Shown here: positions 4,414 to 57,024 of the stretch, piece by piece
Position numbering within the stretch: position 1 is the stretch's first letter
Layout: the number at the start of each line of letters is the position of its first letter
DNA from: Candidatus Saccharimonadota bacterium
GTDB lineage: Bacteria; Patescibacteriota; Saccharimonadia; Saccharimonadales; AQU-01
Assembly (NCBI GenBank): GCA_037137935.1
Contig: JBAXJI010000001.1
Coordinates: forward strand, 1,771 to 65,770
Direction: 5' to 3'
DNA length: 64,000 nt
The notes under the pieces: generated by a model
Told to the model about the DNA's origin: nothing
Databases searched by the model: none
Seen by the model: the letters and a program-made list of their open reading frames with translations, nothing else
Translations under genes and position numbers: made by a program

Positions 4414-5868
4414 ATGTTCAAGAAGTTGCTATCTAATTTACCTTATAGTCCAGGCCTTATTGATGAGGTCGCTTTTTATGCCAAGCGTCTTCGTAGGGAG
4501 ACTATTGTGCGTCGAACCGGATTTATCTTGATCATCCTTACCGTGTTTATACAGATGTTCGCCTTAATTAGCCCTCCACAAGCATCATTAGCGCAGTCCA
4601 ATAATGACTTGATTAACGGAGGCGTAAGATCGGCTGAAGATGCTATCAACAACTGTCGCTCTAGTAGCTCTGACTACGCTGATATACTGGCGAACTTTAA
4701 TATTGATTGTGCTGACTTGGCGAATGCCAAAGATGTTAAGCTCGACTCCAAAGACTTTCACGGCGAACTCTATACCACCGGCCGCCTAGCTTACGGTAAA
4801 GCCGGCGAAACTCCGCTAAATATTAAGGCAAAGACTTACTGGTTGCGCAAATTATCTGATTACGACAACGGCTCAACCAAACACGATGCCCTTCTCGTCA
4901 CCAACAAAGACGGTCAGAAGTTTTATATAGTTAAAGATTGTGGTGGTGGCCTGACATTCGTCGGCATTCCACCCACTCCAAAAGCAAAATGCGAATGGTC
5001 TGCGTCTCTGTTATCTACCGACCCTAAATGCTCCGAGCCCTGCCCTATTGCCAGCAAAAAAAACATAGCCAAGACTAGTTCTGAATGTTACGAGGCTTGT
5101 CCGGTCAAAGGTAAATCTAATATAAAGTCCAATAATGTCGCTTGTTTCGAGCCCTGCCCTTATAGAAGCAAAGAGGCTTACGCCAAAAACTCCAGCAGCT
5201 GTTTCGAGCCTTGCACATACAACAGCTCACTCACAGCCACTAGTAGCGACTGTAAGCCATGTAAGAGCTCTCAGACGCGTGAAGATAAAACATCCTGCCT
5301 GAGACTCGGCAAGACGGTCAAAAACGACACCAGCAAGCTAAATAACGCCAACGGATCTACCGCTAAGCCTAATGACGTGCTCACCTACACTTTATCCGTC
5401 ACCAACGACGGTGACTCGTCCATCAAAAACTTCGTTGTCCAAGAAAATATAAGCGACATACTCGACTACTCCGACATCTCACAGACTAGCGGCGGAATAA
5501 TCAATAAAAATATTATTAGTTGGCCAGCCGAGGATATTGGTGGTGGCAAAACCTTGGTCAAGAATTTTAGCGTCAAGATAAAGAACGCACTTCCTGCAAC
5601 GCCTGTTTCGGCTAGTGATCCAAATCATTATGATTTAAAGATGACAAACGTGTATGGAACTTCTGTGACCGTAAAACTACCTCCCTCAGTCATCAAAAAT
5701 ATCGAAATAACGACCAAAATACTACCCAACACTGGCGTCAAAGGCAGCTTAGCTATTTGCTTCGTATTACTGGTCTTGGCCGGCTACTTCTTCGCTCGAT
5801 CACGCTTAATGTTGAGAGAACTAGCAATAATTAAAGCCGACCATCATGACGGCGGGGAGTCTTACTGA
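4414..5868 (+). CDS. Sortase-anchored (LPNTG) cysteine-rich surface protein with a DUF11-like repeat domain
   Basis: N-terminal TM/signal segment. Central about 20-aa Cys repeats (C-x-EPCP...). The segment NDVLTYTLSVTNDGDSS resembles the conserved DUF11 repeat. C-terminal LPNTG is followed by a hydrophobic stretch and an RSR tail. Confidence 0.6.
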   Translation: MFKKLLSNLPYSPGLIDEVAFYAKRLRRETIVRRTGFILIILTVFIQMFALISPPQASLAQSNNDLINGGVRSAEDAINNCRSSSSDYADILANFNIDCADLANAKDVKLDSKDFHGELYTTGRLAYGKAGETPLNIKAKTYWLRKLSDYDNGSTKHDALLVTNKDGQKFYIVKDCGGGLTFVGIPPTPKAKCEWSASLLSTDPKCSEPCPIASKKNIAKTSSECYEACPVKGKSNIKSNNVACFEPCPYRSKEAYAKNSSSCFEPCTYNSSLTATSSDCKPCKSSQTREDKTSCLRLGKTVKNDTSKLNNANGSTAKPNDVLTYTLSVTNDGDSSIKNFVVQENISDILDYSDISQTSGGIINKNIISWPAEDIGGGKTLVKNFSVKIKNALPATPVSASDPNHYDLKMTNVYGTSVTVKLPPSVIKNIEITTKILPNTGVKGSLAICFVLLVLAGYFFARSRLMLRELAIIKADHHDGGESY

Positions 5869-6424
5869 TATGGGCGAACAGCACCCTGGAAAAATTAGCG
5901 AAAAGCCTACTGGCAAAGACGATTATTTAGATTTACTCAAACCAAGTGTCGCCGAGACAACAGATACCGACTATGAAGCCGCTAGATTAAGCTCTCTAGA
6001 GCAATCTCGTCAATTAGTAGAACAAAGCGCTACCAGTTCTGAATTAATGAACAAGGCCGAAAAGACCCCAGAAATAGTACCCGAGATTCAAGTCACAACT
6101 AGCCTTAAAAAAGACGGTTTTGACAGAGTAATTATTCGCACAAGAAAGCAATTACCACTTACCGGACGAATACTAAGCAAGGTTATCCATCAGCCAATAA
6201 TCGACTTCATAAGTGATGCTGGCGAGAATACCATTGCCCGACCGTCAGGATTACTAGGCGGAGGCATAGTCTCCCTACTAGGTAGCGGCGTAATACTCTA
6301 CACTGCAAAGAACTACGGTTTTCGCTATAATTTATTAGCTTTTTTCCTATTGTTTTTGGCAGGATTCATCATCGGCCTAATCATAGAGAAGCTATTGCAC
6401 TATGCTCTTAAACTCCGAAAATAA
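5846..6424 (+). CDS. Hypothetical membrane protein (C-terminal TM helices)
   Basis: 192-aa ORF overlapping the upstream gene by 23 bp. Hydrophobic C-terminus. No recognisable motif. Confidence 0.4.
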   Translation: MTAGSLTDMGEQHPGKISEKPTGKDDYLDLLKPSVAETTDTDYEAARLSSLEQSRQLVEQSATSSELMNKAEKTPEIVPEIQVTTSLKKDGFDRVIIRTRKQLPLTGRILSKVIHQPIIDFISDAGENTIARPSGLLGGGIVSLLGSGVILYTAKNYGFRYNLLAFFLLFLAGFIIGLIIEKLLHYALKLRK

Positions 6425-6430
6425 TATCTA

Positions 6431-9400
6431 CTAGTTGTTTCGATCGATATTGATGACATGCTCTGTGTGCGTTGATGCAGGAGTAGTTTTGCCTAGATGA
6501 AGTTCGCCGTTATGGACTGGCTCTGGACTAACTTGGGCTGGAACAGGTTGAGCGGCGTTATGGTTTAGGCTCTCTCGCAATTCGGCGGCAACACCTGCTA
6601 TCTCCTTATCCTCAAGCTGAGAACTGGAGATATTAGTTGTTGTGGTGGCTGGGTGCGTAGTTTCTGTAAAAGGAAGCCTATGGGCGCTGTCACGGGTCAA
6701 AGACTCGCTATCATCTTGATCAGTAGCTATGAATTTGGAATCATGGCGATCAATTTGAGGTGAAATAGTCGCAGTGTCTGGGGTGGCGGCTGGAATATTA
6801 TTGGCTGCAACGACTGGACTATTGCTGGCCACAGGCGCTACCGGTAATGGTGTTGGTGCTATCGGCGGTTGAGGCTGACTGGCCTGTGGCGCAACAGATG
6901 GCTTGGCAGGCTGCCCAGCGCCTGCAGGAGTGACTGTTTGACGCTTAGTTAACCAATCATCCAAAAACGACGGTGCAGGAGCTCCAGGCGCTCTTGGAGG
7001 CGCGGTAGGGGCTGGACTAGCTGGCCTTTGACCACCAACTGAAGCAGCGGGCGTTGGAGCCTCTACGGTTTTAAGTCTGGCAAATATTTCTTTCTCTATC
7101 TGATCCTTAGCTCGCCCAAATTTTGCTGCCGACAATTGTTTAAGCGCCTTACCTAGTTCTAAATTAGCTGACCCTAGTGGAGGCAAAGTAGCCATGCTGA
7201 AGGATTGCGTCGGAATACCGCCAATCAACATCTGTGTAATAGTGTTAAAGTTTGGAATACGCAACACATCCTCGCGTTCAAAAATTGGCGAAAACTTCTT
7301 GCTCAAACTGTCAGCATCAGCATCCGACCCGACACGGAAAGACACAGTCGTACCAACGTTACCAAATACGGCATCACGAATCTCATCTGTTAACTGAGTA
7401 GTGAATTGGTTGGCAACGATCAAGTTAAGGCGATACTTTCTGGCCTCTGACATGATTGTGGCAAAAGAATCTGTGGCAAAGTTCTGGAACTCATCAACAT
7501 ATAGACAAAAATCTTGTCGATCGTCCTCATAAATATCGGCTCGGCTCATGGCGGCAGCTTGGAACTTCATAACAAAAATCATACCCAACAGTTTTGAGTT
7601 CAACTCTCCTGTACGCCCCTTAGACAAGTTAACGAATAGGATCTTTTTATTATCCATAATGTCTCTAAGGTTGAATGAGCTCTTCTGCTGACCGATGATA
7701 TTACGCATCATCTCGTTAGACAAAAACGCACCGAACTTACTCACAACCCAGCTTGTGACCTCACCTGCCTCGTTTGACTTCTGTGAGTTCGGCCACTCTT
7801 TGGTCCAGAAATCTAACACGTTACGATCGGTCACGTACTGCAACTTAGCTTTCATAAACTCTGAATCAATCAGTAGTTTTGGAATATCGACGAAGGTTCC
7901 ACCCTTAGGATCAGCCATTAGAAGTAAGGCGCTATTGGTGAATATACGCTCAAACCTAGGCCCAATTATTCCCTGCTTTTGTGGGTCATACAATTTATAA
8001 AGCATGTTGATGGATTCTTGAATCAAAAAGTCCTTCTGCTCAGGAGCGTAGAACTCAAACAGGTTTAGACCCATTGGGAAATCCATGTCGGATGGGTTGA
8101 AGTAGACAATATCCTCGGTGCGTTCCTTCGGAACCATAGACATAAGGTTGTCTACTGTGTCACCGTGAGGATCAACAAAAGCGAACCCCCTACCCGCTAG
8201 CATGTCCTGAAGTGCCAAATTTTCTAGAAACACCGACTTTCCTGTACCCGTCTGTCCAACTACATACATGTGGCGACGGCGGTCCTCTAGACTCAACCGT
8301 ATAGGCTTTTTGACGCCACGAAACACATTGTAGCCAAGCATCAGGCCGTTTTCGGGCATATTGCGTGGACCATCAACCTGCTTAGAGGCTTGACGAGCAA
8401 GCTGTGTAGTAGGTATATTCTTGTGATCTGGGAAGTGAAATAGCGTAGCTAATTCAACAGAGTTTAGAATATTCTTATTATTCTCTTGCGGGAAAAATCT
8501 CATAATAAATGCTGTGGCAAAACTTTCTATATCTGCAGCGTCAGTGTATTTGAAACCGTTTTTGCCAGGCGCATCAAATAAAGAAAACGCAGCCACCATA
8601 CTGCTCTTAATAGCTTGTGCCTTTTGCGGATTATTAGAAGATGCAATGACACGAATCAAGACTTCAAATCCAGGGTGCCTTGTCTTGTCATCTATGGCGT
8701 CAACTATCTGCTGATCAAGAGCTGACAACTGTTTTGTCTGAGACTTTTCACTAGTACCACCGACATGCTCGGGAGGTCGCCAAAGTGCTGCTGGAACTTG
8801 GCGCCACCAACCAATCGTAGAACTGTTAAATTTAGTTTTACTGCTCTCGCCACCGCGCTTCTCAGAAGAAACAGATTGCGACTGCTTGCGCCAATCGTCA
8901 TGCGCTGGCCTCATCAATAGCTGGATTCCCGCTCCGTCGTCCTTATCTAATGTAGACAACGAGTTCAAAATCGACTGCATGGCGTCGCGCTTTAGCTCTT
9001 GATAAGTAGCAATTGGATAAGCAAAATTCTCTTTTAATGTAAGCTCACCGCCAGCAGTCCCACTAATCTTACCGATTGGACTAAATATATTGTGTTCAGC
9101 AACTTCTTCTAGCTGAGCGGTCGGGTAAGCACTGTTTACAGCCTGCTTCACGACCTCAACTAACGCTATCGGCACAGCGGCGTAAAAGCTAACAATTCCC
9201 TTGCTCGCTATGATTTCAAAGCCAAAATGACGCTGTCCGTAAAACTTATTCTTGAACGAGGCCTTCTGGATTGTGCTAGCAATAATGCCATAAAGAACCT
9301 GAGATTTAGATATATTCTCGTCAATCAAATCGCGCACATCGCGGCCGTTTTCGTGATTATCTTCACTAAGTGGCGGCAAGTGTATAAGCATCGGGACGAC

Positions 9401-9532
9401 CTTTAGCCCTCTCTCGAAGTTCTTCTGCTCACGAAATACTTTTTTGGAATGAGAATACCAAATAGCCCCAATGGCTGGAATAATCACAAAAACTACAACC
9501 AATATCACTAGAATTATAGACATAGCTGGCAA
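6431..9532 (-). CDS. TraD/TrwB/VirD4-family (type IV coupling protein-like) P-loop ATPase with an N-terminal TM anchor and a Pro/Ala-rich C-terminal tail
   Basis: Walker A VGQTGTGKS followed by FVDPHGD (matches the TrwB/TraD IVDPNGD motif). Walker B LYVDEF. N-terminal TM helix. About 400-aa unknown domain before the ATPase. About 250-aa low-complexity P/A/T-rich C-terminus. Confidence 0.55.
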   Translation of the reverse strand: MPAMSIILVILVVVFVIIPAIGAIWYSHSKKVFREQKNFERGLKVVPMLIHLPPLSEDNHENGRDVRDLIDENISKSQVLYGIIASTIQKASFKNKFYGQRHFGFEIIASKGIVSFYAAVPIALVEVVKQAVNSAYPTAQLEEVAEHNIFSPIGKISGTAGGELTLKENFAYPIATYQELKRDAMQSILNSLSTLDKDDGAGIQLLMRPAHDDWRKQSQSVSSEKRGGESSKTKFNSSTIGWWRQVPAALWRPPEHVGGTSEKSQTKQLSALDQQIVDAIDDKTRHPGFEVLIRVIASSNNPQKAQAIKSSMVAAFSLFDAPGKNGFKYTDAADIESFATAFIMRFFPQENNKNILNSVELATLFHFPDHKNIPTTQLARQASKQVDGPRNMPENGLMLGYNVFRGVKKPIRLSLEDRRRHMYVVGQTGTGKSVFLENLALQDMLAGRGFAFVDPHGDTVDNLMSMVPKERTEDIVYFNPSDMDFPMGLNLFEFYAPEQKDFLIQESINMLYKLYDPQKQGIIGPRFERIFTNSALLLMADPKGGTFVDIPKLLIDSEFMKAKLQYVTDRNVLDFWTKEWPNSQKSNEAGEVTSWVVSKFGAFLSNEMMRNIIGQQKSSFNLRDIMDNKKILFVNLSKGRTGELNSKLLGMIFVMKFQAAAMSRADIYEDDRQDFCLYVDEFQNFATDSFATIMSEARKYRLNLIVANQFTTQLTDEIRDAVFGNVGTTVSFRVGSDADADSLSKKFSPIFEREDVLRIPNFNTITQMLIGGIPTQSFSMATLPPLGSANLELGKALKQLSAAKFGRAKDQIEKEIFARLKTVEAPTPAASVGGQRPASPAPTAPPRAPGAPAPSFLDDWLTKRQTVTPAGAGQPAKPSVAPQASQPQPPIAPTPLPVAPVASNSPVVAANNIPAATPDTATISPQIDRHDSKFIATDQDDSESLTRDSAHRLPFTETTHPATTTTNISSSQLEDKEIAGVAAELRESLNHNAAQPVPAQVSPEPVHNGELHLGKTTPASTHTEHVINIDRNN

Positions 9533-9538
9533 CTTTTC

Positions 9539-10006
9539 TTAAGATTCATCGACTTTAATCTCACGCTTATATCGCTTACCGATGTAATCTGCCTTGAATT
9601 TGTTTATCTCTTTATTCTGCAGGTAAGGATCATCATGAGTCCGCTCGACAATTGCCTTTGCTTTATGCACCCACTCTTGTTCTATCAAGTCGTTATCGTC
9701 TGCCACCGCTGGACTGTCTGGATGATAGGAAGATCCAGGGACTTTTGTCGCTAAATCGTTGGTATTCTTTGTGGAATTCGTCTGAATCTCGTCGTTAACC
9801 TTATCAACAAGATCGTTTGCCTCTTGAGTCTTATTAGGCTCAACCCCTGCCTCAACAACAGTTTCCGGAGTTTGGTGTATAGCGGAAGCCGCCTGTGCCT
9901 TTATAGCCATAACCTCTGGTAGGTTAGTTAGCGAGTCCTCATCCGCCTGATTAGGGTCTTGTGTCGGGTCCATATGGCTTAAATTATAGCAGAAGCATGT
10001 CGTCAA
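9539..10006 (-). CDS. Hypothetical protein
   Basis: 155-aa ORF. Acidic N-terminus. No motif recognised. Confidence 0.35.
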   Translation of the reverse strand: MTTCFCYNLSHMDPTQDPNQADEDSLTNLPEVMAIKAQAASAIHQTPETVVEAGVEPNKTQEANDLVDKVNDEIQTNSTKNTNDLATKVPGSSYHPDSPAVADDNDLIEQEWVHKAKAIVERTHDDPYLQNKEINKFKADYIGKRYKREIKVDES

Positions 10007-10050: not shown

Positions 10051-10404
10051 CTAGCTTAAACGCAAATCAAGCTTAGAAACATAGAAATATCCAACAAGTC
10101 CAAAAACAAAAACAAGCATGACATCCCTCAAGGTTAACTGGCTAATTGAGTCCAGCAACAACACTAAAGTAGGTAATCCAGCGCAAAATACAGACAAAAT
10201 AATAGTTCTCGGTGATTTATCCCGATGCATTATTTCTGTAAACAATTTAATAAAAGACCAAAGCAAGGTTATGAATATCCATAAAAATGGAAGTATTAAC
10301 CATCCGATGGCAAGTTTGGACGGATCAGTACTAAACATAAACAAAACAATGCCGCCGTAAAGCAGCACTGGTATTGTTAACTTTTTGACTATTCTTCGTT
10401 TCAA
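10051..10404 (-). CDS. Small integral membrane protein (3-4 TM)
   Basis: 117-aa ORF, strongly hydrophobic. Confidence 0.4.
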   Translation of the reverse strand: MKRRIVKKLTIPVLLYGGIVLFMFSTDPSKLAIGWLILPFLWIFITLLWSFIKLFTEIMHRDKSPRTIILSVFCAGLPTLVLLLDSISQLTLRDVMLVFVFGLVGYFYVSKLDLRLS

Positions 10405-11701
10405 CTCTTAACCCTCCCCTTTTCTACTGTTCTTGTATGTTCCGCTGTGCCTCCCGATAAGGCAAATGTATTGCTGCAGTCCTCACAAACTATCAAAATT
10501 GTCGACGAACAAAATAACTACCCCGAAAAACTCTGGCCTTAAAATCGTCTATTTGTGATCGTGTGTTCGTTGATAAAATCTTGATGTTTTGATTTATGTG
10601 TAGACATATTTTTCTCGCTTTTTTGTTTTACTTTTTGCGGACAATTCATACTACGAGATGCGTTATAAAATCTTGGAAGCCGGACGGTAAATCCGCCCAA
10701 TATAAAATGTATGGCAGTTACCGTCCTTTGGCTTTTTTGACTGACCGCTCTTTATGCTTTTCAGCACTCGGAGCGAGGTGTAACTGGAGCAGTTACTTTT
10801 GGTAATATTCTCGTAAATTACCTCACCTACAGTACTAAATTATTACGCTTATGTCAATACGATTATAATGTAATTATAACAACTATACAGTGTGGGAAGA
10901 TGTTCTGAATAAATGAAATATAGGCAATTTAATGTTATCAATATGACAACGATAATTCTCAAAATAAATGCACATAATACGAACATAGCCTGAACACAGA
11001 CCCAAGCGTTAAGAGTTACTGCAGCTTGGATTCAGGCGCCGTGAAAATGGATTTAAGACGCATAATTTGGTGATTAATGCCTGGTATTGGGCCCTAAAAA
11101 TGAAAAATTTATCTAATATTTATCGCTCCCATGGGCTTGAATTTACGTATTTTTAGACTTGATGAATAGCCATTTAATCCAGTGAATAATTGGCCAAAAC
11201 TGGACCATTCTGGCTGCTAATTTTGCCTTTAGATTCTGCATAAATAAACCTCATGTGATGTATGGCGCAGCCGTAAATGTTTACTAGCTAAGGCTGGATA
11301 TCTACATAGATCATTCGTATCAATAATCTTAGGCAATGCACTCATAATATGCTCATAAGCGATTAACTAGGTCATTATTGACGCTAAAACGCGGTATAGG
11401 GGCTTAAAATCGCTCTAACAGATACTGGAGCATCTGCTTAGGATCTATTGACCAGCAGATGATCTAATCCCCCACCCGCCAACCATACCGTCTATTAATA
11501 ATTTGCGACCTGTTTAGCCATTTCAGCAACAATAATAATTTAAAATTGCTAAAAATCATTAAAAACGGCTTTTTTAGGTGAATTTATCGACTGTTACTAA
11601 TATTTCGCCAAAACCTAATGATTGTGACTATATTTTTAGCCAATTCTCACCCCTGTTAATATAGTTATGCACAGCTTTATTTACTATTTTAACCACAAAC
11701 A

Positions 11702-11735
11702 TGTTGACAGCTAAAAAGACAATGTATAGGATATA
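11702..11735 (+). promoter_or_regulatory. Sigma70-like promoter (TTGACA - 17 bp - TAGGAT/ATAAAT)
   Basis: TTGACAgctaaaaagacaatgtaTAGGATATAAAT lies in an otherwise ORF-free region, upstream of a structured segment that ends in a terminator. Confidence 0.4.
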
Positions 11736-11903
11736 AATAGCACTGAATAAAAAAGGTGCTCAAAAACAAAAACGTCTTCAGTAACAACGGCTTATCGCAA
11801 GCCGTTGTTCCATAAAAACAATTAGTTCTAATAACAAAATCAAACACACACCAAAACTCATCACCCAAGAAAACCCCGCCACAAATAGGCGGGTTTTTCT
11901 TTG
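11736..11903 (+). ncRNA. Candidate small RNA (about 150-170 nt) bounded by promoter and intrinsic terminator
   Basis: Downstream of the promoter are two hairpins (agcac...gtgct; AACAACGGCTT-atcgc-AAGCCGTTGTT). A GC-rich hairpin CCCCGCC-acaaatag-GGCGGG followed by TTTTTCTTT lies at 11872-11903. No ORF of 60 aa or more. Confidence 0.3.
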
Positions 11904-11998
11904 TAGAGATCAACACCCCGCCGATAACTTTGTAATCTTTTATTCATAATTTTTTAGCCCACACTGCCCTACACTATTCAATTAGAAATGAGGCCAAC

Positions 11999-13525
11999 AT
12001 GAGTGCGACCGTACAAAGCGTTATCGAATCGGGTTCTGCGGGCGTAATAATAGATGTGGAGTGCCATTTATCTAACGGCCTGCCCAGTATTATCATCGTC
12101 GGACTGGCCAACAAAGCGGTCGATGAAGCCAAGGAGAGGTTGCGCGGCGCATTTACTAATGCTGAGCTCAAGCTACCAAAGAAGCGCATTACTGTTAATC
12201 TAGCTCCCGCAGATATTCCAAAAGACAGCACAAGCTTCGATCTAGCTATAGCCACGGCAATCTTAATCGCCGGCAGCCAGACTAGCCAAGCTCTTGGCGA
12301 CAATACTTTAATGGTTGGAGAGCTCGCACTTAACGGTAGCGTTCGCCCAGTCCGAGGTATTATCGGTAAATTACTAGCCGGGCGTGAGTTGGGATTCGAT
12401 ACATTTTATATTCCCTACGGCAACGCTCGCCAAGCTCTACTAGTACCAAATATAACCATTATCCCCGTTCAGAATATCCGTGATGTTTATTTACACCTAA
12501 ATAATACTGTCAGCTTAAAATCTATCGCCACCAATAACGGAACCACCGGACGTGCTAAATCGTCGCCGGGAGATAGTACTAGCAGCGACTTTAAGTATGT
12601 TGTGGGCCAACACAGAGCCAAGCGTGCGCTCGAAATAGCTGCCGCCGGCTCACACAATGTTCTACTTAACGGACCGCCAGGCACCGGGAAAAGCATGCTA
12701 GCAAAAGCCTTGCCGACCATCCTGCCTGCGCTCAGCCCAGAAGAAATGCTCGAAGTAACTCATCTTCACAGCCTAGCCAGCAAACAATACGACGTGATTA
12801 TTCATAACAGACCGTTTCGTTCACCACATCATAGTGCGAGCGATATATCTATAATTGGTGGCGGGCAGTATCCTCGCCCTGGCGAAATTAGCTTAGCTCA
12901 CAGAGGTATATTATTCTTGGATGAGTTGCCAGAATTTGGTAGAGCTACAATTGAAGCTCTACGACAACCACTCGAAGACAAAATAATAAGCGTGGCGCGA
13001 GCGCGTGATAGCCTTGTCTTTCCGGCCCATTTTATCCTAGTTGCAACCGCCAACCCCTGCCCCTGCGGATATTACGGCACCAGCCATGAATGTAGCTGCA
13101 TGCCTCACCAAATAACCAACTACCAACGCAAATTATCTGGGCCAATTATCGATCGAATTGATATGTATGTAGATGTTGATGAAGTGGTTCACGCCAAGTT
13201 GCTAACCAGCGACGACCAAGAATCCAGCGCTGAAATTGCCGATCGGGTAGTTTTAGCCCGAGCTCGGCAGACTGAACGATTCCAGACTACTACCAAAACT
13301 AACAGCGATATGACTAATCAAGATATTAAAAAGATCGGCCTACTCTCTTCTGAGGCACAGGAACTGCTCAATCAGGCGGCTTCGCGGCTGCAGATTTCGG
13401 CTCGGCATTATATGAAGTCTATCAAGGTGGCTCGGACTATTGCTGATTTGGAAGGCTCAGAACAGATTACTCCGGCTCATATGGCGGAGGCCTTACAATA
13501 CCGCAAACGGACTATCACTTTTTAA
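11999..13525 (+). CDS. comM: Mg-chelatase-like AAA+ ATPase, competence protein ComM (YifB family)
   Basis: 508 aa. N-terminal Lon-like domain. Walker A LLNGPPGTGKS, Walker B FLDELPEF. C-terminal ChlI/YifB region with CPCGY Zn motif. Confidence 0.9.
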   Translation: MSATVQSVIESGSAGVIIDVECHLSNGLPSIIIVGLANKAVDEAKERLRGAFTNAELKLPKKRITVNLAPADIPKDSTSFDLAIATAILIAGSQTSQALGDNTLMVGELALNGSVRPVRGIIGKLLAGRELGFDTFYIPYGNARQALLVPNITIIPVQNIRDVYLHLNNTVSLKSIATNNGTTGRAKSSPGDSTSSDFKYVVGQHRAKRALEIAAAGSHNVLLNGPPGTGKSMLAKALPTILPALSPEEMLEVTHLHSLASKQYDVIIHNRPFRSPHHSASDISIIGGGQYPRPGEISLAHRGILFLDELPEFGRATIEALRQPLEDKIISVARARDSLVFPAHFILVATANPCPCGYYGTSHECSCMPHQITNYQRKLSGPIIDRIDMYVDVDEVVHAKLLTSDDQESSAEIADRVVLARARQTERFQTTTKTNSDMTNQDIKKIGLLSSEAQELLNQAASRLQISARHYMKSIKVARTIADLEGSEQITPAHMAEALQYRKRTITF

Positions 13526-13818: not shown

Positions 13819-14454
13819 ATGAAATATGAAGTTCCTTTTGTTGCTAATACATCTGATGACTTGCACTGTTTACAGGCGGCTTACATGATGATTACAAAGT
13901 TTTTCCAGAAAGACTTCGATATATGTATGGACGAATGGTCACAACTTACCGGTTTTGAAACAGATAAAGGCACCTGGGCCAATGCGGGATTATTATGGTT
14001 TATGGACAATGGGTATGATGTCAGCCACATTTCCCTTTTTGATTACAAATCTTTCGTGAATAGCCCCGAAGACTACCTTGTTAAGCTCACAGGTGAAAAG
14101 GTTGGAGCTTGGCAGATAGCGCACACCAATATCCCTGCCGAAGTCAGTAGGGTTAAAAAGTTATTGGAATCTGGAGTAATAGAGAGACGCGAACCAACCA
14201 TCGAAGATATTAAGAACTTACTTGATGATGGATATTTAGTCCGAGTCATGGTCAACTCCTCTAGACTTAATGGCACGGACGGCTATATTGGCCATGCCGT
14301 ACCAATTATAGGGTATGATGAAGAGAATATAATTTTCCATGATCCAGGCCTTCCACCACTAGAAAATCGTAGAATAAGCATCAATGACTTCGAAAAAGCC
14401 TGGGCCGACCCCAACCCCGAATCAAAAGAACTCGACGCCATCAAACTCGTATAA
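13819..14454 (+). CDS. Papain-fold cysteine peptidase, peptidase C39-like domain protein
   Basis: 211 aa. Cys in DDLHCLQAAYMMI and His in GHAVPIIGYDEEN-IIFHDP are spaced as in C39/BtrH-like peptidases. Confidence 0.5.
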   Translation: MKYEVPFVANTSDDLHCLQAAYMMITKFFQKDFDICMDEWSQLTGFETDKGTWANAGLLWFMDNGYDVSHISLFDYKSFVNSPEDYLVKLTGEKVGAWQIAHTNIPAEVSRVKKLLESGVIERREPTIEDIKNLLDDGYLVRVMVNSSRLNGTDGYIGHAVPIIGYDEENIIFHDPGLPPLENRRISINDFEKAWADPNPESKELDAIKLV

Positions 14455-15868: not shown

Positions 15869-15899
15869 ACACCGCCTTTTAGGGGCGGTGTTTTTATAT
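15869..15899. terminator. Bidirectional intrinsic terminator between convergent rplT and rnpB
   Basis: ACACCGCC-tttta-GGGGCGGTGT is flanked by an A-run upstream and TTTTTAT downstream, so both strands have U-tracts. Confidence 0.65.
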
Positions 15900-15901
15900 A
15901 T

Positions 15902-16270
15902 GCCAGATGATCTGTAAGCCGGGTTCTGTCCTCGTTTGCACGAGTTCTGATCATCTATCTAGGCCTAAAATTGCTCTTAGGCTCGAGCGGGTTTTGTGAA
16001 TTGCCTCGGCGGGACGCCTTATATGAGACATATCTCCTTGCAACGTACTGGGTTTACCTTCGTCTCATGTCACCATGAGATGCTGTGAGCTCTTACCTCA
16101 CTCGTTTCATCCTTACCGTCAGTCTTTCGACTGCTTAGGCGGTTTAGTTTCTGTGGCACTTTCCCTAGGGTTGCCCCCGGTCGCCGTTAGCGACAGTACT
16201 TCCCTGTGTTGCCCGGACTTTCCTACCGACCATTGTTGCCAATAGTCCGTCGATCAGTCGATTATCTGGC
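15902..16270 (-). ncRNA. rnpB: RNase P RNA (bacterial type A)
   Basis: The reverse complement contains GGAAAGTCCGGGC (P4 5' strand), GGGAAAGTGCCACAGAAA, GGTAAGAGCTCAC and the 3' ACAGAACCCGGCTTA (P4 3' strand). The terminal P1 pairs GCCAGAT with ATCTGGC. Confidence 0.85.
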
Positions 16271-44191: not shown

Positions 44192-45109
44192 GTGATGTTA
44201 TTTAGCAAAGCAAAGACTGATTATTTGGAATATCTTGAGATTGAGCAAAATCGATCCCAGAAGACTATAGCCAATTATGATCATTATCTGACACGCTTAA
44301 TAGATTTTGCCGGAGAGATAAAAATAAGTGAAATCGATGCTGAACTTATTCGTAAATGGCGTCTCTGGCTAAATAGACTCGGCACCAACACCTCTGACGA
44401 ATTACAAAAATCGACACAGAACTATCATCTTATAGCTTTAAGAAGTTTTTTGAAGTACTGCGCTAAGCGTGACATCCCTGCCCTTACGGCTGACAAAATC
44501 GAACTCGCCCGAACCGTCCGTAAACAAGTAACATTCTTGAACGAAGACGAGCTAGACCGTCTATTTGCCCAACCCGATATCAGCAAGTTGTCTGGCATTC
44601 GTGATCGAGCAATCCTAGAGCTACTCTTTAGTAGTGGTCTGCGCGTATCGGAGCTTGTTGGGCTCGACAAAGACCATATCAACCTGAAGCGACGCGAGTT
44701 TATGGTTAGAGGTAAGGGCCAGAAAGATCGTCCTATCTTTATTAGTCCAGCAGCCGCTAAGTGGCTAAGCCACTACTTAGAAAAACGCGAAGATAATGTT
44801 AAGCCGCTATTCGTCCGTTATAGTGGCAGCAAAAAAGTTGACCTATCTGGCGACTTTCACAGATTGACTGCGCGTAGTGTCCAACGATTAGTCGCCCGTT
44901 ACGCCCTGCTAGCCGGAATAACCAAACATGTCAGCCCACACACACTCAGACACAGCTTTGCTACCGACCTAATCATGAACGGCGGTGATTTACGCGCCGT
45001 ACAAGCCATGCTAGGCCACAGCAATATCGCCACAACGCAAATCTACACCCACGTTACCGACCCTCACCTTCGTGCTATCCACGAAAAGTTTCACCGCAAA
45101 GACAACTAG
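44192..45109 (+). CDS. xerC: Tyrosine site-specific recombinase, XerC/XerD family
   Basis: N-terminal SAM-like core-binding domain (YLEYLEIEQNRSQKTIANYDHYL). The catalytic C-terminus has R...HxxR...Y (LRHSFATDLIMNGGDLRAVQAMLGHSNIATTQIYTHV). Confidence 0.8.
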   Translation: MMLFSKAKTDYLEYLEIEQNRSQKTIANYDHYLTRLIDFAGEIKISEIDAELIRKWRLWLNRLGTNTSDELQKSTQNYHLIALRSFLKYCAKRDIPALTADKIELARTVRKQVTFLNEDELDRLFAQPDISKLSGIRDRAILELLFSSGLRVSELVGLDKDHINLKRREFMVRGKGQKDRPIFISPAAAKWLSHYLEKREDNVKPLFVRYSGSKKVDLSGDFHRLTARSVQRLVARYALLAGITKHVSPHTLRHSFATDLIMNGGDLRAVQAMLGHSNIATTQIYTHVTDPHLRAIHEKFHRKDN

Positions 45110-46227
45110 TTAATACCCTTCGCATTGCCACTGCCGCTCAAACAATCAGTATCAATAGCTCCAATAGCATTGATTTTGATCTTCTTGCAAATCTCTGTAG
45201 CTGAATCAATCGAAAAGCTAGGTGTTAGATTTTTGAGGGTGAACGATCTTCTGGCACTAATACGCTTTGTGATGCCGCCAACCTTAGTAGTAACATCTAT
45301 AACTGTCTGAGATTCACTCAAGGAAATACTACTACTCGTAGAATCCTGAGCAATTATAGATACTGTGGCGGCAGAATATATAGGACGAACCCTGACATAG
45401 AAATCTTTGCCCGGCACAACATACATTGTGGCTCGACAAAATTTAGGAGAATTACTTGCCGAACATTTACCGCTAACAATCTCGCCCTTAGAGTCTCCGC
45501 CTTCCACACTATAACCAGTACCGGTGCCATCAGTCGGATACAAATAAAAAGCCTGACTGCTATCAAGCAAGGATTGGGCAGTATTACTCGCCCCCCAAGG
45601 CACTATATCTACCTTTAACACTGGCGGATATGAACTAGACCATTCGGCTAGCTTAGTAAAGCCAGAACCCACTGGAGGTGTGGATGTCGCGGGATTTGTG
45701 CCGTCCCAGCCAACCTCAATTCGTGAGATATCAGTAGCCCCCCTTGTGATAATGTGGATACTCTGTGAATTATCCTTCTCAACAGAATCATAGACTAATG
45801 AATTCTCATCTCGATTTATCAATAAGCAAGTTACGGCCCCTGAACTAATTCCGGTCGGCAATACTATAGGGGGGAAGGCATTTTTCATTTTATATATAGA
45901 GCTGTCTGGCCCAGAACATTTGTTTCCCGAGATACTAGCGACAGTATATGCATTATTGTCTACCGCAGAAATAATAGTGTTTATGGTGGCCTCTCCTGTG
46001 TAGTAAGCCTGGCTATTGAGTTGACGATCTATAGTTTGACGCTGCTCCCGGTTAATGACTTGCGAGTAGGTCATAACTATAATGGTTATTAAAACCATCG
46101 TTATAAGAGTGACTATTATAGACACTATACCCTTTTGATTACTATGTATTTTTGAGCGCTTAGGCATAATCCTTATAGTCATTATAGTCGATTCTGAACT
46201 ATTGTAGTTAATTCGGATACTGCACAA
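45106..46227 (-). CDS. Pilus-associated protein / putative minor pilin (distal gene of T4P operon)
   Basis: 373 aa. N-terminal hydrophobic helix. Lies with three prepilin-like genes. Confidence 0.35.
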   Translation of the reverse strand: MCSIRINYNSSESTIMTIRIMPKRSKIHSNQKGIVSIIVTLITMVLITIIVMTYSQVINREQRQTIDRQLNSQAYYTGEATINTIISAVDNNAYTVASISGNKCSGPDSSIYKMKNAFPPIVLPTGISSGAVTCLLINRDENSLVYDSVEKDNSQSIHIITRGATDISRIEVGWDGTNPATSTPPVGSGFTKLAEWSSSYPPVLKVDIVPWGASNTAQSLLDSSQAFYLYPTDGTGTGYSVEGGDSKGEIVSGKCSASNSPKFCRATMYVVPGKDFYVRVRPIYSAATVSIIAQDSTSSSISLSESQTVIDVTTKVGGITKRISARRSFTLKNLTPSFSIDSATEICKKIKINAIGAIDTDCLSGSGNAKGIN

Positions 46228-46853
46228 AATTCAGTACCGACATTTTTGCCGTCACGACAACGAATATCACCCTTGAGCGGAGCGAGCCCCGCGGTAATAA
46301 CAGATGAAGTGCTAGTACAGTCACCAACTATACTTGGACTACACAACAAGACTGCCTCACCATAAACTAGCCTAACTTTTACTTCATAAACTCCTAATAC
46401 CTGCGTAACAGACAGTGCGACTAAACGTGCGCCTGGTGGAACTAGCTCTCGTTGAGACGCATAATCAAATGAGGTGAGGTCAGCTGGCCCCGTACATGCT
46501 GAAGGGCTGTCTCTAACTAAGACATGCGAAACCTTATCCCCTCCAGCCGTCACTTCTGCCGTCTTGTCAGTTAATCGCTTGCCCAAAACATATGTATATC
46601 GAGCTTCACCAGTACAAAAATAATTTGCTCCAGCAGCAACTCCGCCACTGCCAAACCTTACAGAACCCGTAATCTCTGCACTTATTTCGCGCACAGCTTC
46701 TTGAGTTCTTGTCTGTAGAATACCCTTATAATACATACGTCCGATTCGAATCGTCATAGTCGATACTATAGTCAAAAAAACAGACATAATCGTCGTAGCA
46801 ATCAATAACTCTATGAGTGTAAAGCCGCTTTGATGTTCGTTATATTTTTTCAT
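46182..46853 (-). CDS. Prepilin-type N-terminal cleavage/methylation domain protein (minor pilin)
   Basis: N-terminus MKKYNEHQSG|FTLIELLIATTIMSV is a class III signal (G/FTLIE). Confidence 0.7.
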   Translation of the reverse strand: MKKYNEHQSGFTLIELLIATTIMSVFLTIVSTMTIRIGRMYYKGILQTRTQEAVREISAEITGSVRFGSGGVAAGANYFCTGEARYTYVLGKRLTDKTAEVTAGGDKVSHVLVRDSPSACTGPADLTSFDYASQRELVPPGARLVALSVTQVLGVYEVKVRLVYGEAVLLCSPSIVGDCTSTSSVITAGLAPLKGDIRCRDGKNVGTEFCAVSELTTIVQNRL

Positions 46854-46856
46854 AAT

Positions 46857-47342
46857 TTAATACACAGAGTAGTTCAGGACTACCTCCCCTTTGCCGTTTC
46901 CTCCGGCTTGCCACCATCTAACACGAATTACAAAATCCTTGCTACCTCCGCTTGATCTATTAATAAGCGTGTAGTAAGTAGTATTACTGTTAGTGATGCA
47001 TTTTAGTGGGTAATTCGTTAGAGTGTCGCTATTAAAAGAAGTAGGAGGAAGTGGGTTGACAAAATTAACCACCTCAACAGTGGGCGGATCGGCTATGCTA
47101 TCAACTTTTAAGCAAAAATTAGTAGCAGATGTTGCTGTGAATCCTATGATGGACGAAAAAGCTCTTAGCTCGTCGGCCTGCGACTCTGCCACCTTAAGTG
47201 CCCCCGCTCTCTCCTGTGACCTATAAACACTCGTTAGATTACTTACGACCGTCCTATATGCCATTGTTAAGATCATACTGGTAATTGTCAGCGAAAACAT
47301 GACCTCTATAAGCGTATCTCCGTAATTATCAAGCTTTTTCAT
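46857..47342 (-). CDS. Prepilin-like minor pilin
   Basis: N-terminus ...GDTLIEVMFSLTITSMIL is a degenerate prepilin motif. Confidence 0.55.
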   Translation of the reverse strand: MKKLDNYGDTLIEVMFSLTITSMILTMAYRTVVSNLTSVYRSQERAGALKVAESQADELRAFSSIIGFTATSATNFCLKVDSIADPPTVEVVNFVNPLPPTSFNSDTLTNYPLKCITNSNTTYYTLINRSSGGSKDFVIRVRWWQAGGNGKGEVVLNYSVY

Positions 47343-48214
47343 AGACAGGCCCCATCTGCAAACTGAACCGTAACACTTGACTGACGACCATTGCCACCGA
47401 TAGTAACATATGCGTGTCTATCTGGTCCTGTTTCTGAATTTTCTAAACAAATCTTAATTCCACTGCTTGGATTTTTAGTCGAATCTCTGCCTGAAGAAGC
47501 GTCCAACGTCTTGCGCCACTCGCCATAAGGAAAAAGACTCGTAGTACCAGTCCCAAAAGGGTCCCATATAATTGGCTCCGCAGGGATTATGTCGGTTTGA
47601 GCATCGCCAGACACTAAACTAGCGCCTGAAGAATTAGCGAAGGTCGTGGTAAACCCCAGACCATTAAGTGGTGTATACGCCCCGCTCAAATTAATATAAG
47701 AAACACTGTGCACAACAACACCATAGGACAGTCTTTCAGATATACTACCAAGATTATTGACATCAATGATTGGCCAAGTTTGAGCCTCGTAAAGGCTTTT
47801 TGCAGGTCTTTTAACTCCACTAATGTCAGTATCTTTCTTTCCGACCAATGCAAAAACATCATAACGGGGACTCCCTTCAGTGAACTGCATTCCTATGCCA
47901 ACAAATAGACACCCCTCGCTAGTGCCGCGTCTGTCTGAAGCTGTTGGCGGAGCGTAATCAATAATCACAGCGTTCGCAGCAGTGCCGTCATGGGTACAAA
48001 CGTAGTTCGTGCTAGTTGGATTATTTCCGGTAGCAACGTCATTAGCTATATCCATAAGTCGGGACTGAAAGGCGTTTACAGATTGAACAAACTCCGTTTT
48101 TGATTGCTGTCCATTAATAATGGTTGCGAGCATTCCGAACAAACCCATTGAAATAGATAGCGTAAGCATTACTTCAATTAAGGTAAACGCTCGTGAATTT
48201 AACCCTGTTCTCAT
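47339..48214 (-). CDS. Prepilin-like minor pilin
   Basis: N-terminus ...RAFTLIEVMLTLSISMGLF. Confidence 0.6.
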   Translation of the reverse strand: MRTGLNSRAFTLIEVMLTLSISMGLFGMLATIINGQQSKTEFVQSVNAFQSRLMDIANDVATGNNPTSTNYVCTHDGTAANAVIIDYAPPTASDRRGTSEGCLFVGIGMQFTEGSPRYDVFALVGKKDTDISGVKRPAKSLYEAQTWPIIDVNNLGSISERLSYGVVVHSVSYINLSGAYTPLNGLGFTTTFANSSGASLVSGDAQTDIIPAEPIIWDPFGTGTTSLFPYGEWRKTLDASSGRDSTKNPSSGIKICLENSETGPDRHAYVTIGGNGRQSSVTVQFADGACL

Positions 48215-48285
48215 CTATTAAATTATAGCATAACCACGATCACCTAAATCAGTCACGACCTGCTATATTATCTTGCCGATAATAG

Positions 48286-49182
48286 CTAACCTATCATTAG
48301 TAGCTTTTTATACCAGGCAATAATGCTAGAACCGAACAAATATACAATAATCGTAGCAGCAATTAGAAAAGGACCAAACGGTATCTTACTACCCCTATTA
48401 GCCTTCCCTGTGATCAACAAAGGCAACGAGAACAGTGAGCCAAGGCAGGATGCCATAAAAAGAAGTAAAAGTGCTGGCCAAGGACCACCAACAAGCAAGC
48501 CCAGCACAGCACCGAGCTTAACGTCCCCGCCACCTATCAACTCTTTTCCAGGTACATGAAATAACACAAAAAATATGCCTCCACCTATAAGCAAACCATA
48601 TACAGCGCCAAGAATAGCACTGACGCCCCCGTGATAAATTGTACCCATAATAAAAACATGAACCAGTGATAAAAAGAATAAAGGTACAACTATGCGGTTC
48701 GGCAGCAGCAACCATCTAATGTCATAAATTACAAGCGCAACAAAACTAACAACAAAAATTAACCAAATCACAAACAACAAGACGCTACTATAATTCCAAG
48801 CAAGAGGCCAATATATATAAGAAATGACAAATAGTAAGGGAGTGACGATCTCAGTGACGGGCGTATCCTCGTAAGTAGCGTGACAATACCGGCATTTACC
48901 TCGTAGCTGCAACCAACTTAATATGGGTATTAAATCAATAGCTGATAATTGGTGTCTACAATTAGGACACATAGATCGACCACTGACAATGGACATTTCT
49001 TTTGATTTAACACTGGATGGCGAATATTTTAGAGAACTGGTAGATTTGTGTTTCTTGAAACTGCTAGTATAGACAGTATTTTGCTGCTCATGTATACGCC
49101 AAACCAAGGCATTAATAAAGCTGCCGAAACATATCCCAGTAATTAAAAGATAAACCATAATCATGTTAACCCATAATACCAT
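48286..49182 (-). CDS. pilD: Prepilin peptidase (peptidase A24)
   Basis: Zn-binding CPNC...CRYC. Polytopic membrane protein. Catalytic GGGDVKLGAVLGLLVG motif. Confidence 0.8.
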   Translation of the reverse strand: MVLWVNMIMVYLLITGICFGSFINALVWRIHEQQNTVYTSSFKKHKSTSSLKYSPSSVKSKEMSIVSGRSMCPNCRHQLSAIDLIPILSWLQLRGKCRYCHATYEDTPVTEIVTPLLFVISYIYWPLAWNYSSVLLFVIWLIFVVSFVALVIYDIRWLLLPNRIVVPLFFLSLVHVFIMGTIYHGGVSAILGAVYGLLIGGGIFFVLFHVPGKELIGGGDVKLGAVLGLLVGGPWPALLLLFMASCLGSLFSLPLLITGKANRGSKIPFGPFLIAATIIVYLFGSSIIAWYKKLLMIG

Positions 49183-49237
49183 GTAGCCAATAAAAAAACG
49201 GGGCGAAGTGCCCCGTTTTAATAATTACAGATTTATA

Positions 49238-49759
49238 CTAGTTTGCCTGTACGCAATATGGTGTAGCCGTACCATTTGTTTCTAGTAGGTACTGGATAGC
49301 TACTTTTGTATTTGAGGCATCGTAAGAAACCGCGCCAGCTGCACCGCATGTGCCATTTTGGAATAATGCTAATGCTGTCAAGTTAGCGTTAGCGGCTCCT
49401 GTTACCATTGCTGCTGCGCCTATAGCTGGTGTCTGTGAAATCGTTAACGTGTTAGCGCCAACTGCAGCACCGTAAGCTAATCCATTGTATTGCGCAAGTG
49501 ACCCAGTGGCGTTAACCAAACTTAGACCACTGGTTGCTGGTGCTGTAGCGATTGCACTCCCTGGATTATTAGCATACCAGTCTATTACTGCTGCCCCTAC
49601 TCTTGCTATATCATTTTTCCTAGCCGTATTACGTTGACTTCTCTGTAAGCCAGGTACAGCCAAGAAAACTATTAACATGATAAGTCCGGCTATCGCTAGC
49701 ACTATCATTGCTTCAATGATAGTGAACCCTTCAGATCGCTTTTTTAAGTTTTTGAACAT
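49238..49759 (-). CDS. pilA: Type IV major pilin
   Basis: MFKNLKKRSEG|FTIIEAMIVLAIAGLIMLIV prepilin signal. 173 aa with C-terminal Cys pair. Confidence 0.75.
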   Translation of the reverse strand: MFKNLKKRSEGFTIIEAMIVLAIAGLIMLIVFLAVPGLQRSQRNTARKNDIARVGAAVIDWYANNPGSAIATAPATSGLSLVNATGSLAQYNGLAYGAAVGANTLTISQTPAIGAAAMVTGAANANLTALALFQNGTCGAAGAVSYDASNTKVAIQYLLETNGTATPYCVQAN

Positions 49760-49911
49760 ATAATACGCCCCCCCTAGAAATTATTAATTATGCTTATGTT
49801 TTTAATGATACGTTTATCTTAAATAAAAAGCAATACTATTTATATACTTTATGGCGAATACCGCTATGTCGTATTCGATCTCTATTAAGCCCTTCTCTTA
49901 TGGGCCATTTA

Positions 49912-51132: not shown

Positions 51133-51227
51133 ACGAGCTCCGCCACACTGTCGTCACTAACAGATTCATGAAGTGATATGATTACTAAATCTATATTTAT
51201 CATACGGTCAATTACCTCTGTTATAAA

Positions 51228-52295: not shown

Positions 52296-52443
52296 TATAG
52301 TTGCCCCCTAAACCCTTTAATCAGCAATGAGTAGTATGCAGGAACTAACTTCGCGCTTAATAAGCTTGTAGGCCTTTTATGTATCGCTCTGCTTATTTCT
52401 GACATTTCCCCACCCTTCTATTAACTACTAAATAATTTCTCAT

Positions 52444-54240: not shown

Positions 54241-54311
54241 GAGATACCACCCAATAATTGGCCAGCTGCAGTTTGGTTAGGCTGAACAGTCAATAACATT
54301 AAACCTACTCC

Positions 54312-54560
54312 TTAGTTAGTGCCGCCGAAAGGCTGAGGATTAGTGTTGTCACCGATTCTAATAATCTTGGTCGGATTGATTGAATCAGCATTAAAATACC
54401 TGCTATCAGGTCGTTTAAACTCAGGGCTTATTAATTCAACAACCTCCACCTTCTCCTGCCTATTCTTGGGTGCTGTAATGAAAAGATTAGATAATACCAA
54501 AGACAAAATTCCTGATATCGTCGCTATAACTACAATAATTAATATATCTTTTCGCTTCAT
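54312..54560 (-). CDS. Small membrane protein in T4P operon
   Basis: 82 aa, single TM. Confidence 0.35.
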   Translation of the reverse strand: MKRKDILIIVVIATISGILSLVLSNLFITAPKNRQEKVEVVELISPEFKRPDSRYFNADSINPTKIIRIGDNTNPQPFGGTN

Positions 54561-56948: not shown

Positions 56949-57024
56949 ATTACCTCGATTATACCATAAGCACTATCTATAAATGCAATACAGTTAGCTG
57001 TGGCGAGTTTGCAATAAACGCTGA

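Follow-up and report, generated by a model that had tools for sequence, protein, structure and literature searches.

A DUF8128-containing VirD4/TrwB-type ATPase encoded beside gyrB is a syntenic core gene of Saccharibacteria and a candidate motor for their type IV secretion system

For growth on their hosts, Patescibacteria rely on an essential type IV secretion system (T4SS) that has no relaxase. Here we ask what role is played by an ATPase resembling type IV coupling proteins (T4CP), which is encoded beside gyrB in a 64-kb stretch of DNA (the window) from a Candidatus Saccharimonadota bacterium. The original prediction took the gene for an orphan that may have been either left behind by a conjugative element or repurposed for competence. 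We argue that it is a syntenic core gene of the Saccharibacteria lineage, that its ortholog by synteny in Southlakia epibionticum, SEML1_0142, is essential for growth, and, with moderate confidence, that its product is the missing substrate-feeding motor of the essential chromosomal T4SS. The gene and its parts are laid out as follows, residues being numbered in the frame of 1,033 aa.

6431..9523, minus strand: gene for the DUF8128 + coupling-protein-like ATPase; likely ATG start at 9523, 1,030 aa; the open reading frame (ORF) reaches a TTG at 9532
9455..9523, minus strand: single N-terminal transmembrane helix, aa 4-26, from hydropathy
8303..9451, minus strand: N-terminal alpha/beta domain, Pfam DUF8128 (PF26449), aa 28-410, from annotation of homologs, AlphaFold and Foldseek
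7163..8302, minus strand: P-loop motor of the VirD4/TrwB type, aa 411-790, including an all-helical insert (about aa 499-627), from Pfam, sequence matches in the Protein Data Bank (PDB), the structure model and hhalign
8234..8257, minus strand: Walker A GQTGTGKS, aa 426-433, invariant among 50 orthologs
7487..7504, minus strand: Walker B LYVDEF, aa 677-682, nearly invariant among 128 sequences from three clades
6434..7066, minus strand: low-complexity C-terminal tail rich in P, A and T, aa 823-1033, from composition; very variable in length among orthologs
6950..6970, minus strand: conserved tail motif SFLDDWL, aa 855-861; S, F, L, D, W, L and K each at 90% or more in 50 orthologs

The open frame at 6431..9532 on the minus strand encodes 1,033 aa when read from the TTG. 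Because a database protein with 99% identity to the ATPase (P0001) is 1,030 aa long, and because the conserved first residue in 50 orthologs is M4 of the longer frame, the protein likely starts at the ATG at 9523. The ORF is real.

We first consider what kind of motor it encodes. The GQTGTGKS, FVDPHGD (aa 452-458) and VDEF motifs are all present, as the original prediction had stated, together with an ANQ motif at aa 707-709, and across the 128 sequences the catalytic motifs are invariant or nearly so. Two Pfam coupling-protein profiles exceeded their cut-offs, T4SS-DNA_transf (25.3 bits against 20.1) and TraG-D_C (27.8 bits against 22), while TrwB_AAD_bind stayed below its own (17.4 against 20.5). 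AAA_10 also fell short (13.7 against 27.5 bits), and CagE_TrbE_VirB gave no match. The best NCBIfam matches were to TraD and VirD4-like models, all far under the equivalog or subfamily cut-offs (SXT_TraD, 48.6 against 366; CD1115, 43.4 against 250). TrwB and DotL were the only solved structures matched by sequence in the PDB, whether a single protein or a 50-sequence profile served as query. Furthermore, we compared a 128-sequence family profile by hhalign with TrwB and TrwK/VirB4 of R388 (NC_028464). TrwB was matched with 97.3% probability (E 1.7e-11) over 276 columns, query residues 411-716 aligning to TrwB 115-393, and the alignment passed straight through the all-alpha domain of TrwB (188-300). 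In the structure model the corresponding region of the ATPase, aa 499-627, is an all-helical insert between Walker A and Walker B. The match to TrwK/VirB4, on the other hand, reached 31.6% probability over 69 columns and was confined to the Walker A region. The full-length AlphaFold model has low confidence (predicted local distance difference test, pLDDT, 60.6) and was used for the motor half only; with it, Foldseek matched TrwB, Cag-beta, DotL, VirB4 and HerA. From Pfam, the PDB sequence matches, hhalign and Foldseek, the motor is assigned to the VirD4/TrwB type.

This bears directly on whether the protein might be a segregation or repair translocase of the FtsK/SpoIIIE or HerA kind placed beside gyrase. 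The gene adjoins gyrBA, HerA structures occur among the Foldseek matches, the DUF87 profile (21.8 bits) lies just under its cut-off of 23.2, and the published ECOD mapping of the SEML1_0142 P-loop domain has FtsK (2iut) as its best template. However, FtsK_SpoIIIE scored 15.7 bits against a cut-off of 24 and HerA_C 13 against 22, the protein has neither a gamma domain nor a HAS barrel, no NurA annotation was seen in the neighbourhoods examined, and the profile comparison strongly favours TrwB. We therefore consider this identity very improbable, and the T4CP assignment stands, with coupling-protein profiles passing where FtsK_SpoIIIE and DUF87/HerA do not; best matches to FtsK/SpoIIIE or HerA, named in the original prediction as grounds for refuting it, were not what the searches gave. 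A replacement of FtsK by this protein was also considered and rejected, since Southlakia has a canonical essential FtsK of its own, SEML1_0096, which makes an FtsK-like role unlikely.

The rest of the protein was then placed around this motor. The only strongly hydrophobic stretch is aa 1-29, in agreement with the single transmembrane helix predicted originally, and a basic stretch (KK, R, K, R) comes directly after the helix. Because of this position, the positive-inside rule would place the N-terminus outside and the C-terminus inside, so that most of the protein would be cytoplasmic. Between the helix and the P-loop lie about 380 aa. The original prediction had described some 400 aa of unknown sequence here; a long domain is indeed present, but it is already catalogued as DUF8128. 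PF26449 is annotated on 118 of the 120 best homologs as well as on the examined orthologs and the relatives from Paceibacteria, and 14 residues of the domain are invariant across the three clades, which share 25-30% identity with one another. An AlphaFold model of aa 28-410, built from the 128-sequence alignment, reached pLDDT 86 and a predicted TM-score (pTM) of 0.81. When it was compared with the PDB by Foldseek, the top 14 matches (E 3.6e-6 to 9e-3, query TM-scores 0.40-0.43) were all R388 entries of VirB4 or of the T4SS inner-membrane complex, the first four being VirB4 alone, and the subsequent matches were unrelated alpha+beta proteins at low probability (E 0.011 or higher). This predicted VirB4-like fold of DUF8128 is an addition of the present analysis.

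Between the motor and the tail lies a short conserved helical segment. The tail itself is rich in proline, alanine and threonine as originally described (15%, 15% and 10%), although at 211 aa it is shorter than the 250 or so first estimated, and it is presumably disordered. It carries short conserved peptides, among them SFLDDWL, a candidate partner-binding peptide, and a C-terminal DTIxID. Many of the orthologs from the representative search (P0123-P0133) are 1,267-2,006 aa long and can be aligned over the first ~780 residues only, which means that the C-terminal extension is hypervariable and can exceed 1,000 residues.

We next asked how widely the gene is kept and where it lies. A protein search with the ATPase returned 5,930 significant relatives. 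The best 120 of these are 60-72% identical to it over nearly the full length, and wherever their source is named it is Saccharibacteria or Saccharimonadales throughout. When one genome per species was scanned, a relative turned up in at least 506 species genomes of Saccharibacteria. Synteny was assessed in 82 loci, comprising two contigs (804 and 973 kb) and 80 species loci. The shared order is comM on the opposite strand, an ORF-free gap, then a gene for a membrane protein (p117), a gene for a small protein (p155) and the ATPase gene, followed by p192 and a DUF11-LPXTG gene, both on the opposite strand, and finally gyrB and gyrA. The p155 gene is directly upstream of the ATPase gene in 80 of the 82 loci, gyrB flanks the locus in 69 and comM in 65, while p192 and the DUF11 gene were found in 66 and 64, respectively. 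In about twelve loci the last two are missing and gyrB follows right after the ATPase gene (among them L018, L022, L047, L051, L053, L054, L061, L064, L066, L070 and L077). Since such loci exist, the surface-protein pair is an optional insert lying outside the ATPase unit. The ATPase gene, in turn, is a syntenic core gene of the lineage.

These observations leave hardly any room for an orphan remnant of an integrated conjugative element. It is true, as originally noted, that no VirB4, relaxase or other T4SS gene was found when 45 of the 51 window ORFs of at least 120 aa were scanned with Pfam (14 of them gave no Pfam match, and six short ORFs were not scanned), and this speaks for a remnant. 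But the position between comM and gyrB is kept in loci from different species, relatives occur in hundreds of species genomes, the best homologs are well conserved with all catalytic motifs intact, the base composition over the gene shows no local anomaly, and, as described below, the ortholog is essential. Core-gene synteny had been named beforehand as the finding that would speak against a remnant, and it is what the 82 loci display. Conserved synteny and an essential ortholog together refute the remnant reading.

Genetic evidence comes from Wang et al. 2023 (PMC10633639), whose supplementary tables give transposon sequencing (Tn-seq) calls of essential (ES), growth defect (GD) or non-essential (NE) for S. 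epibionticum ML1 at P0, P1 and P2. The locus in ML1 has the same gene order and orientation as the window and nearly the same gene sizes, the intergenic gap between comM and the operon being 2.85 kb there against 1.6 kb here. SEML1_0142 (3060 nt) was called ES at all three points, its insertions falling from 114 in the input DNA to 11, 11 and 9, and having been essential already at T0 it is a class I essential gene by the definition of that paper (PMC10633639). It is annotated there as a 'TraM recognition domain-containing protein' with a P-loop domain mapped to residues 381-800, and is flagged as a core family that is also enriched in Patescibacteria (PMC10633639). Directly upstream, SEML1_0141 (420 nt, the p155 counterpart) was GD, ES and ES with 0 insertions at every time point, and SEML1_0140 (354 nt, the p117 counterpart) was NE, GD and GD (PMC10633639). 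Among the flanks, gyrB (SEML1_0145) was ES throughout and gyrA (SEML1_0146) GD, ES and ES, while SEML1_0138 (YifB/ComM), SEML1_0143 (582 nt, opposite strand, the p192 counterpart) and SEML1_0144 (DUF11, opposite strand) were NE at all points (PMC10633639). The main text of the paper never mentions gene 0142. It does describe an essential T4SS cluster, SEML1_0006-0019, which 'lacks recognizable coupling and relaxase proteins' (PMC10633639).

The same data speak to the possibility that the ATPase is a DNA-uptake motor acting in competence with ComEC, ComM and DprA. Saccharibacteria are naturally competent, comM is a conserved divergent neighbour, a paralog of the ATPase lies near dprA and topA, and weak NCBIfam matches were obtained to the archaeal DNA-import ATPase CedD (24 bits). 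However, deletion of comEC in Southlakia abolishes competence and not viability, whereas SEML1_0142 is essential, and ComM itself (SEML1_0138) is dispensable. Because comEC and comM can both be lost, competence is unlikely to be the essential function. Neither does the gene arrangement help: the original prediction had placed comM next downstream of the ATPase gene, but it lies upstream of the operon, divergently transcribed across the 1.6-kb gap, behind what appear to be a promoter, an RNA element and a terminator of its own. We thus regard a competence motor as improbable. The broader suggestion of a repurposed DNA-translocation ATPase is still plausible; its competence part is what lacks support.

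How, then, does this gene relate to the coupling-protein homologues already counted in Patescibacteria? An exhaustive search of 50%-identity cluster representatives gave 20,921 clusters at E<=1e-3 and 5,160 at E<=1e-30. Most of the best 150 align from about residue 10-110 to 780 at 32-63% identity, and because the alignments start so early most of these clusters share the N-terminal domain. Distant full-length relatives match TrwB_AAD_bind with 30-72 bits at nearly full profile coverage. Two groups deserve mention. In the first, a Saccharibacteria paralog (the P0178 family), DUF8128 is combined with TrwB_AAD_bind and DUF87, and the neighbourhood runs dprA ... topA ... sigma factor / ATPase, matching SEML1_0293-0296. 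It shares the architecture of DUF8128 plus coupling protein with the window ATPase, at ~40% identity over residues 90-783 of a 790-aa query, but differs in its clear TrwB_AAD_bind match, in its conserved neighbourhood and in being non-essential by Tn-seq: SEML1_0293, with matches to TrwB_AAD_bind, TraG-D_C and DUF87, was called non-essential (PMC10633639). In the second, from Paceibacteria and Kerfeldbacteria (the P0143 family), DUF8128 is joined to TrwB_AAD_bind and TraG-D_C, the genes are flanked by cysS and dnaX, the gene just before them codes for an unrelated small Pro-rich protein, and virB4 was not found within 10 kb of them. The window gene is the SEML1_0142-type member of a DUF8128-T4CP family that occurs in several Patescibacteria lineages in housekeeping neighbourhoods. 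The family as such is already catalogued, through Pfam DUF8128 and T4CP domains, and is counted among the coupling-protein homologues of Patescibacteria.

That count is given by Quinonero-Coronel et al. 2025 (PMC12102498), who counted 5,713 VirD4-type homologues, spread over 2,918 of the 3,035 Patescibacteria genomes surveyed. Only 148 of these homologues lie near virB4, and VirB4 itself was detected in 2,417 of the genomes. They proposed that T4CP homologues of Patescibacteria may be exapted, and called the Southlakia t4cp homologue non-essential (PMC12102498). The two Saccharibacteria paralogs are not told apart in the census, nor is the DUF8128 domain described, and the dispensable homologue to which it refers is probably SEML1_0293, not SEML1_0142. 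The primary Tn-seq paper records no coupling protein in the T4SS cluster and the 2025 census a dispensable one; the data examined here indicate two paralogs. The separation of an essential paralog beside gyrB from a dispensable one is new in the present analysis.

In Southlakia the T4SS is essential, and its gene cluster contains no coupling protein. The gyrB-adjacent ATPase, scored essential together with its small upstream partner, is a concrete candidate for the missing T4SS motor. It is held in the membrane by its one N-terminal helix, presumably with the remainder in the cytoplasm, would form a ring by analogy with TrwB, and would hand substrate over to a membrane channel at the expense of ATP. 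The VirB4-like N-terminal domain could dock the motor on the inner-membrane complex of the T4SS. The chromosomal T4SS would be the most economical choice of channel because it is essential and without its own coupling protein. The ATPase would be made together with p155, downstream of p117; a structured leader RNA lies ahead of them and is followed in most relatives by a terminator-like hairpin. What the analysis establishes is the family of the motor, its architecture, its conservation and synteny, and an essential ortholog; that it forms a ring, that it docks on the T4SS and what it carries are inferences. The distance from the T4SS genes is not unusual, as coupling-protein homologues in Patescibacteria usually lie far from virB4 (PMC12102498).

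Several observations weigh against this assignment. Coupling proteins have two transmembrane helices with a periplasmic loop, whereas the ATPase has one helix. The likeness of its N-terminal domain to VirB4 is one of fold only, with a TM-score of ~0.43 and a root-mean-square deviation of 9-10 A; the family profile showed no similarity to the N-terminal domain of TrwK by hhalign; and the matched part of VirB4 is presumably its N-terminal half, Foldseek giving no residue ranges. No virB4 or other T4SS gene occurs within 10 kb in any relative locus whose gene table was examined, and no substrate, relaxase or adaptor protein could be identified. The census counts imply at least about 500 genomes with a coupling-protein homologue and no detected VirB4 (PMC12102498). 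SEML1_0142, finally, was taken as the ortholog from synteny, gene sizes and annotation.

Part of this evidence would fit an essential ATPase for translocation or remodelling that acts without the T4SS and has p117 and p155 as its membrane partners. Such an ATPase would serve a housekeeping purpose by moving nucleic acid or protein either along the membrane or through it. The family is commoner than VirB4 (2,918 against 2,417 of the 3,035 census genomes; PMC12102498), its neighbourhoods always belong to housekeeping or DNA metabolism (gyrBA and comM, cysS and dnaX, or topA and dprA for the paralog), it has conserved small partners and a leader RNA of its own, and SEML1_0142 is essential at T0 like gyrB, where most T4SS genes show a growth defect. 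Against this, the motor is specifically of the VirD4/TrwB-like kind, known as a partner of VirB-type channels, and the predicted N-terminal fold suggests VirB4, itself a T4SS ATPase. The prevalence gap may come from incomplete metagenome-assembled genomes or from profile sensitivity, and the difference between class I and class II genes is soft, since normalised reads at T0 are lower for VirB4 (SEML1_0008, 147) than for SEML1_0142 (555). A T4SS-independent ATPase is therefore a real possibility, though we think it unlikely. A bolder and distinctly doubtful version of the T4SS-motor reading would see DUF8128-T4CP, with p155, p117 and the leader RNA, as an essential and lineage-defining motor that serves import or exchange in the epibiotic lifestyle. 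In that case the VirD4-type ring with its VirB4-like docking domain would power the uptake of host nucleic acids or macromolecules through the pilus-bearing T4SS of Patescibacteria or a channel of its own, with the structured leader adjusting its expression to a signal from the host.

Besides the points on the motor, the analysis adds a tight pairing with p155 and an uncatalogued leader RNA. The other features of the locus are as follows.

9539..9973, minus strand: p155, small protein directly upstream of the ATPase; likely start M12, the listed ORF extending to 10006
10051..10404, minus strand: p117, a 117-aa membrane protein with four transmembrane segments, first gene of the unit; no Pfam family
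10674..10779, minus strand (operon strand): structured RNA (block 2), about 105 nt, two helices and an invariant GGUCAGUCA linker
11665-11902, plus strand: second conserved block, lying about 100 nt ahead of the comM start; present in 73 of the 82 loci, with a nucleotide identity of 75-88%
11999..13525, plus strand: comM (Mg-chelatase-like), a conserved flank, divergent
5846..6424, plus strand: p192, a 192-aa protein with C-terminal transmembrane segments, travelling with the DUF11 gene
4414..5868, plus strand: surface protein with DUF11 repeats; it carries four C-x-E-x-C-P/T repeats and, at aa 437, an LPNTG sortase signal ahead of a transmembrane segment
2205..4187, minus strand: gyrB, the other conserved flank

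The p155 protein is variable at its N-terminus and conserved over its C-terminal ~50 aa (ADDxDLIEKEWVxKAKxIV...KADYxKKRY). Its stop codon overlaps the start of the ATPase gene, by a median of 4 nt, which suggests from the gene layout that the two are translationally coupled. Homology with the small Pro-rich proteins encoded ahead of the ATPases in Paceibacteria was tested and rejected (hhalign probability 0.1%). The p117 gene was found by tblastn in 43 of the 82 loci, with positional homologs in most, and its matches to CrcB, VirB3/PrgI or any Pfam family were at noise level. The remaining neighbours are those given originally, an LPNTG protein with Cys repeats and small membrane proteins; the DUF11-LPNTG gene is convergent with the ATPase gene and separable from it.

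The 1.6-kb gap (10405-11998) has no credible ORF and contains two conserved blocks. RNAalifold folded block 2 into 19 pairs, 8 of them with compensatory changes. A covariance model then detected it in 78 of the 82 loci from Saccharibacteria, without exception on the ATPase strand, and not in the Paceibacteria or paralog loci. In an alignment of 80 matches 98.9% of cells pair and 14 of the 19 pairs have changed on both sides; 0 of 500 shuffles reached these values, and slid controls pair only 28-52%. The frequent G-U pairs fix the strand. The RNA ends a median of 61 nt ahead of the p117 start codon, and hairpin-plus-U-run terminators between the two are clear in many loci. In the window this spacer (10405-10673) is 269 nt long against the median of 61 nt in relatives, and a terminator-like hairpin at 10347-10370 on the minus strand falls inside the annotated 5' end of p117; the position chosen for the p117 start, or a local insertion, may deserve a second look. 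An exact-pattern scan of metagenomes added 110 further instances, and in 61 of the 62 informative ones p155 or the ATPase gene follows on the same strand. The sole exception, L122 (Ga0193752_1008564), has the leader RNA and p117 inverted relative to p155-ATPase, pointing toward comM; as the element stays with p117 in this inversion, the leader is tied first to p117. Block 2 is a candidate transcription-attenuation or riboswitch-like leader of the p117-p155-ATPase unit. Neither block has a match in Rfam at gathering or relaxed thresholds, and a speF-leader match (22.8 bits against a cut-off of 37) was put down to chance.

The second block begins with a DnaA-box-like site, TTATNCACA, at 11665-11673, followed by a TTGACA-N17-TAGGAT promoter at 11704-11732. 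Then come two hairpins that hardly vary, a variable stretch rich in A and, at 11875-11902, a terminator. A few compensatory and wobble changes within it speak for the comM strand, and the block is a candidate small RNA or comM leader. The gap was also considered as a replication origin and rejected, there being one TTATNCACA box in the 64 kb, fewer than expected by chance, and a GC skew that keeps its sign.

Elsewhere the window holds housekeeping genes and a type IV pilus cluster. The latter (45106-60616, minus strand) encodes N_methyl pilins, a prepilin peptidase (PilD), PilC, PilT, PilB and PilM, and includes a 1038-aa ORF (57025-60141) and several others without a Pfam match. A 211-aa Peptidase_C39-like protein is encoded between comM and infC (13819-14454, plus strand); no counterpart was found in the 82 related loci, where infC comes right after comM, so this gene is probably a lineage-specific insertion. 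A bacterial class A RNase P RNA was detected at 15899-16269 on the minus strand (254 bits), and a tyrosine recombinase of the Xer/phage-integrase family (44192-45109, plus strand) and a Fic-domain protein (61719-62642, minus strand) stand amid housekeeping genes.

Both the predicted VirB4-like domain and the leader RNA are directly testable in Southlakia, which is genetically tractable. Compared with known systems, the ATPase departs from TrwB, TraD and VirD4 in having a 380-aa domain between anchor and motor, in being a chromosomal core gene with no relaxase or mating-pair formation genes nearby, and in having an ortholog that is essential for growth. From VirB4 (TrwK of R388) it differs in that the motors match in sequence only around Walker A, the N-terminal domains lack similarity at the sequence level, and the gene is not beside homologs of VirB3, VirB6 or VirB8. 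With the TrwB/TraD/VirD4 family, including DotL and Cag-beta, it has in common a P-loop motor with GxTGxGKS ... VDP(N/H)GD ... DE, the all-alpha insert between Walker A and Walker B, an N-terminal membrane anchor and a low-complexity C-terminal tail, and the full-length model resembles TrwB in fold (Foldseek E 3e-11, target TM-score ~0.55). With VirB4 it may share a layout in which an alpha/beta N-terminal domain of ~400 aa is followed by a C-terminal ATPase of the FtsK/HerA superfamily, and the low-confidence full-length model aligns to VirB4 from end to end over 866 columns.

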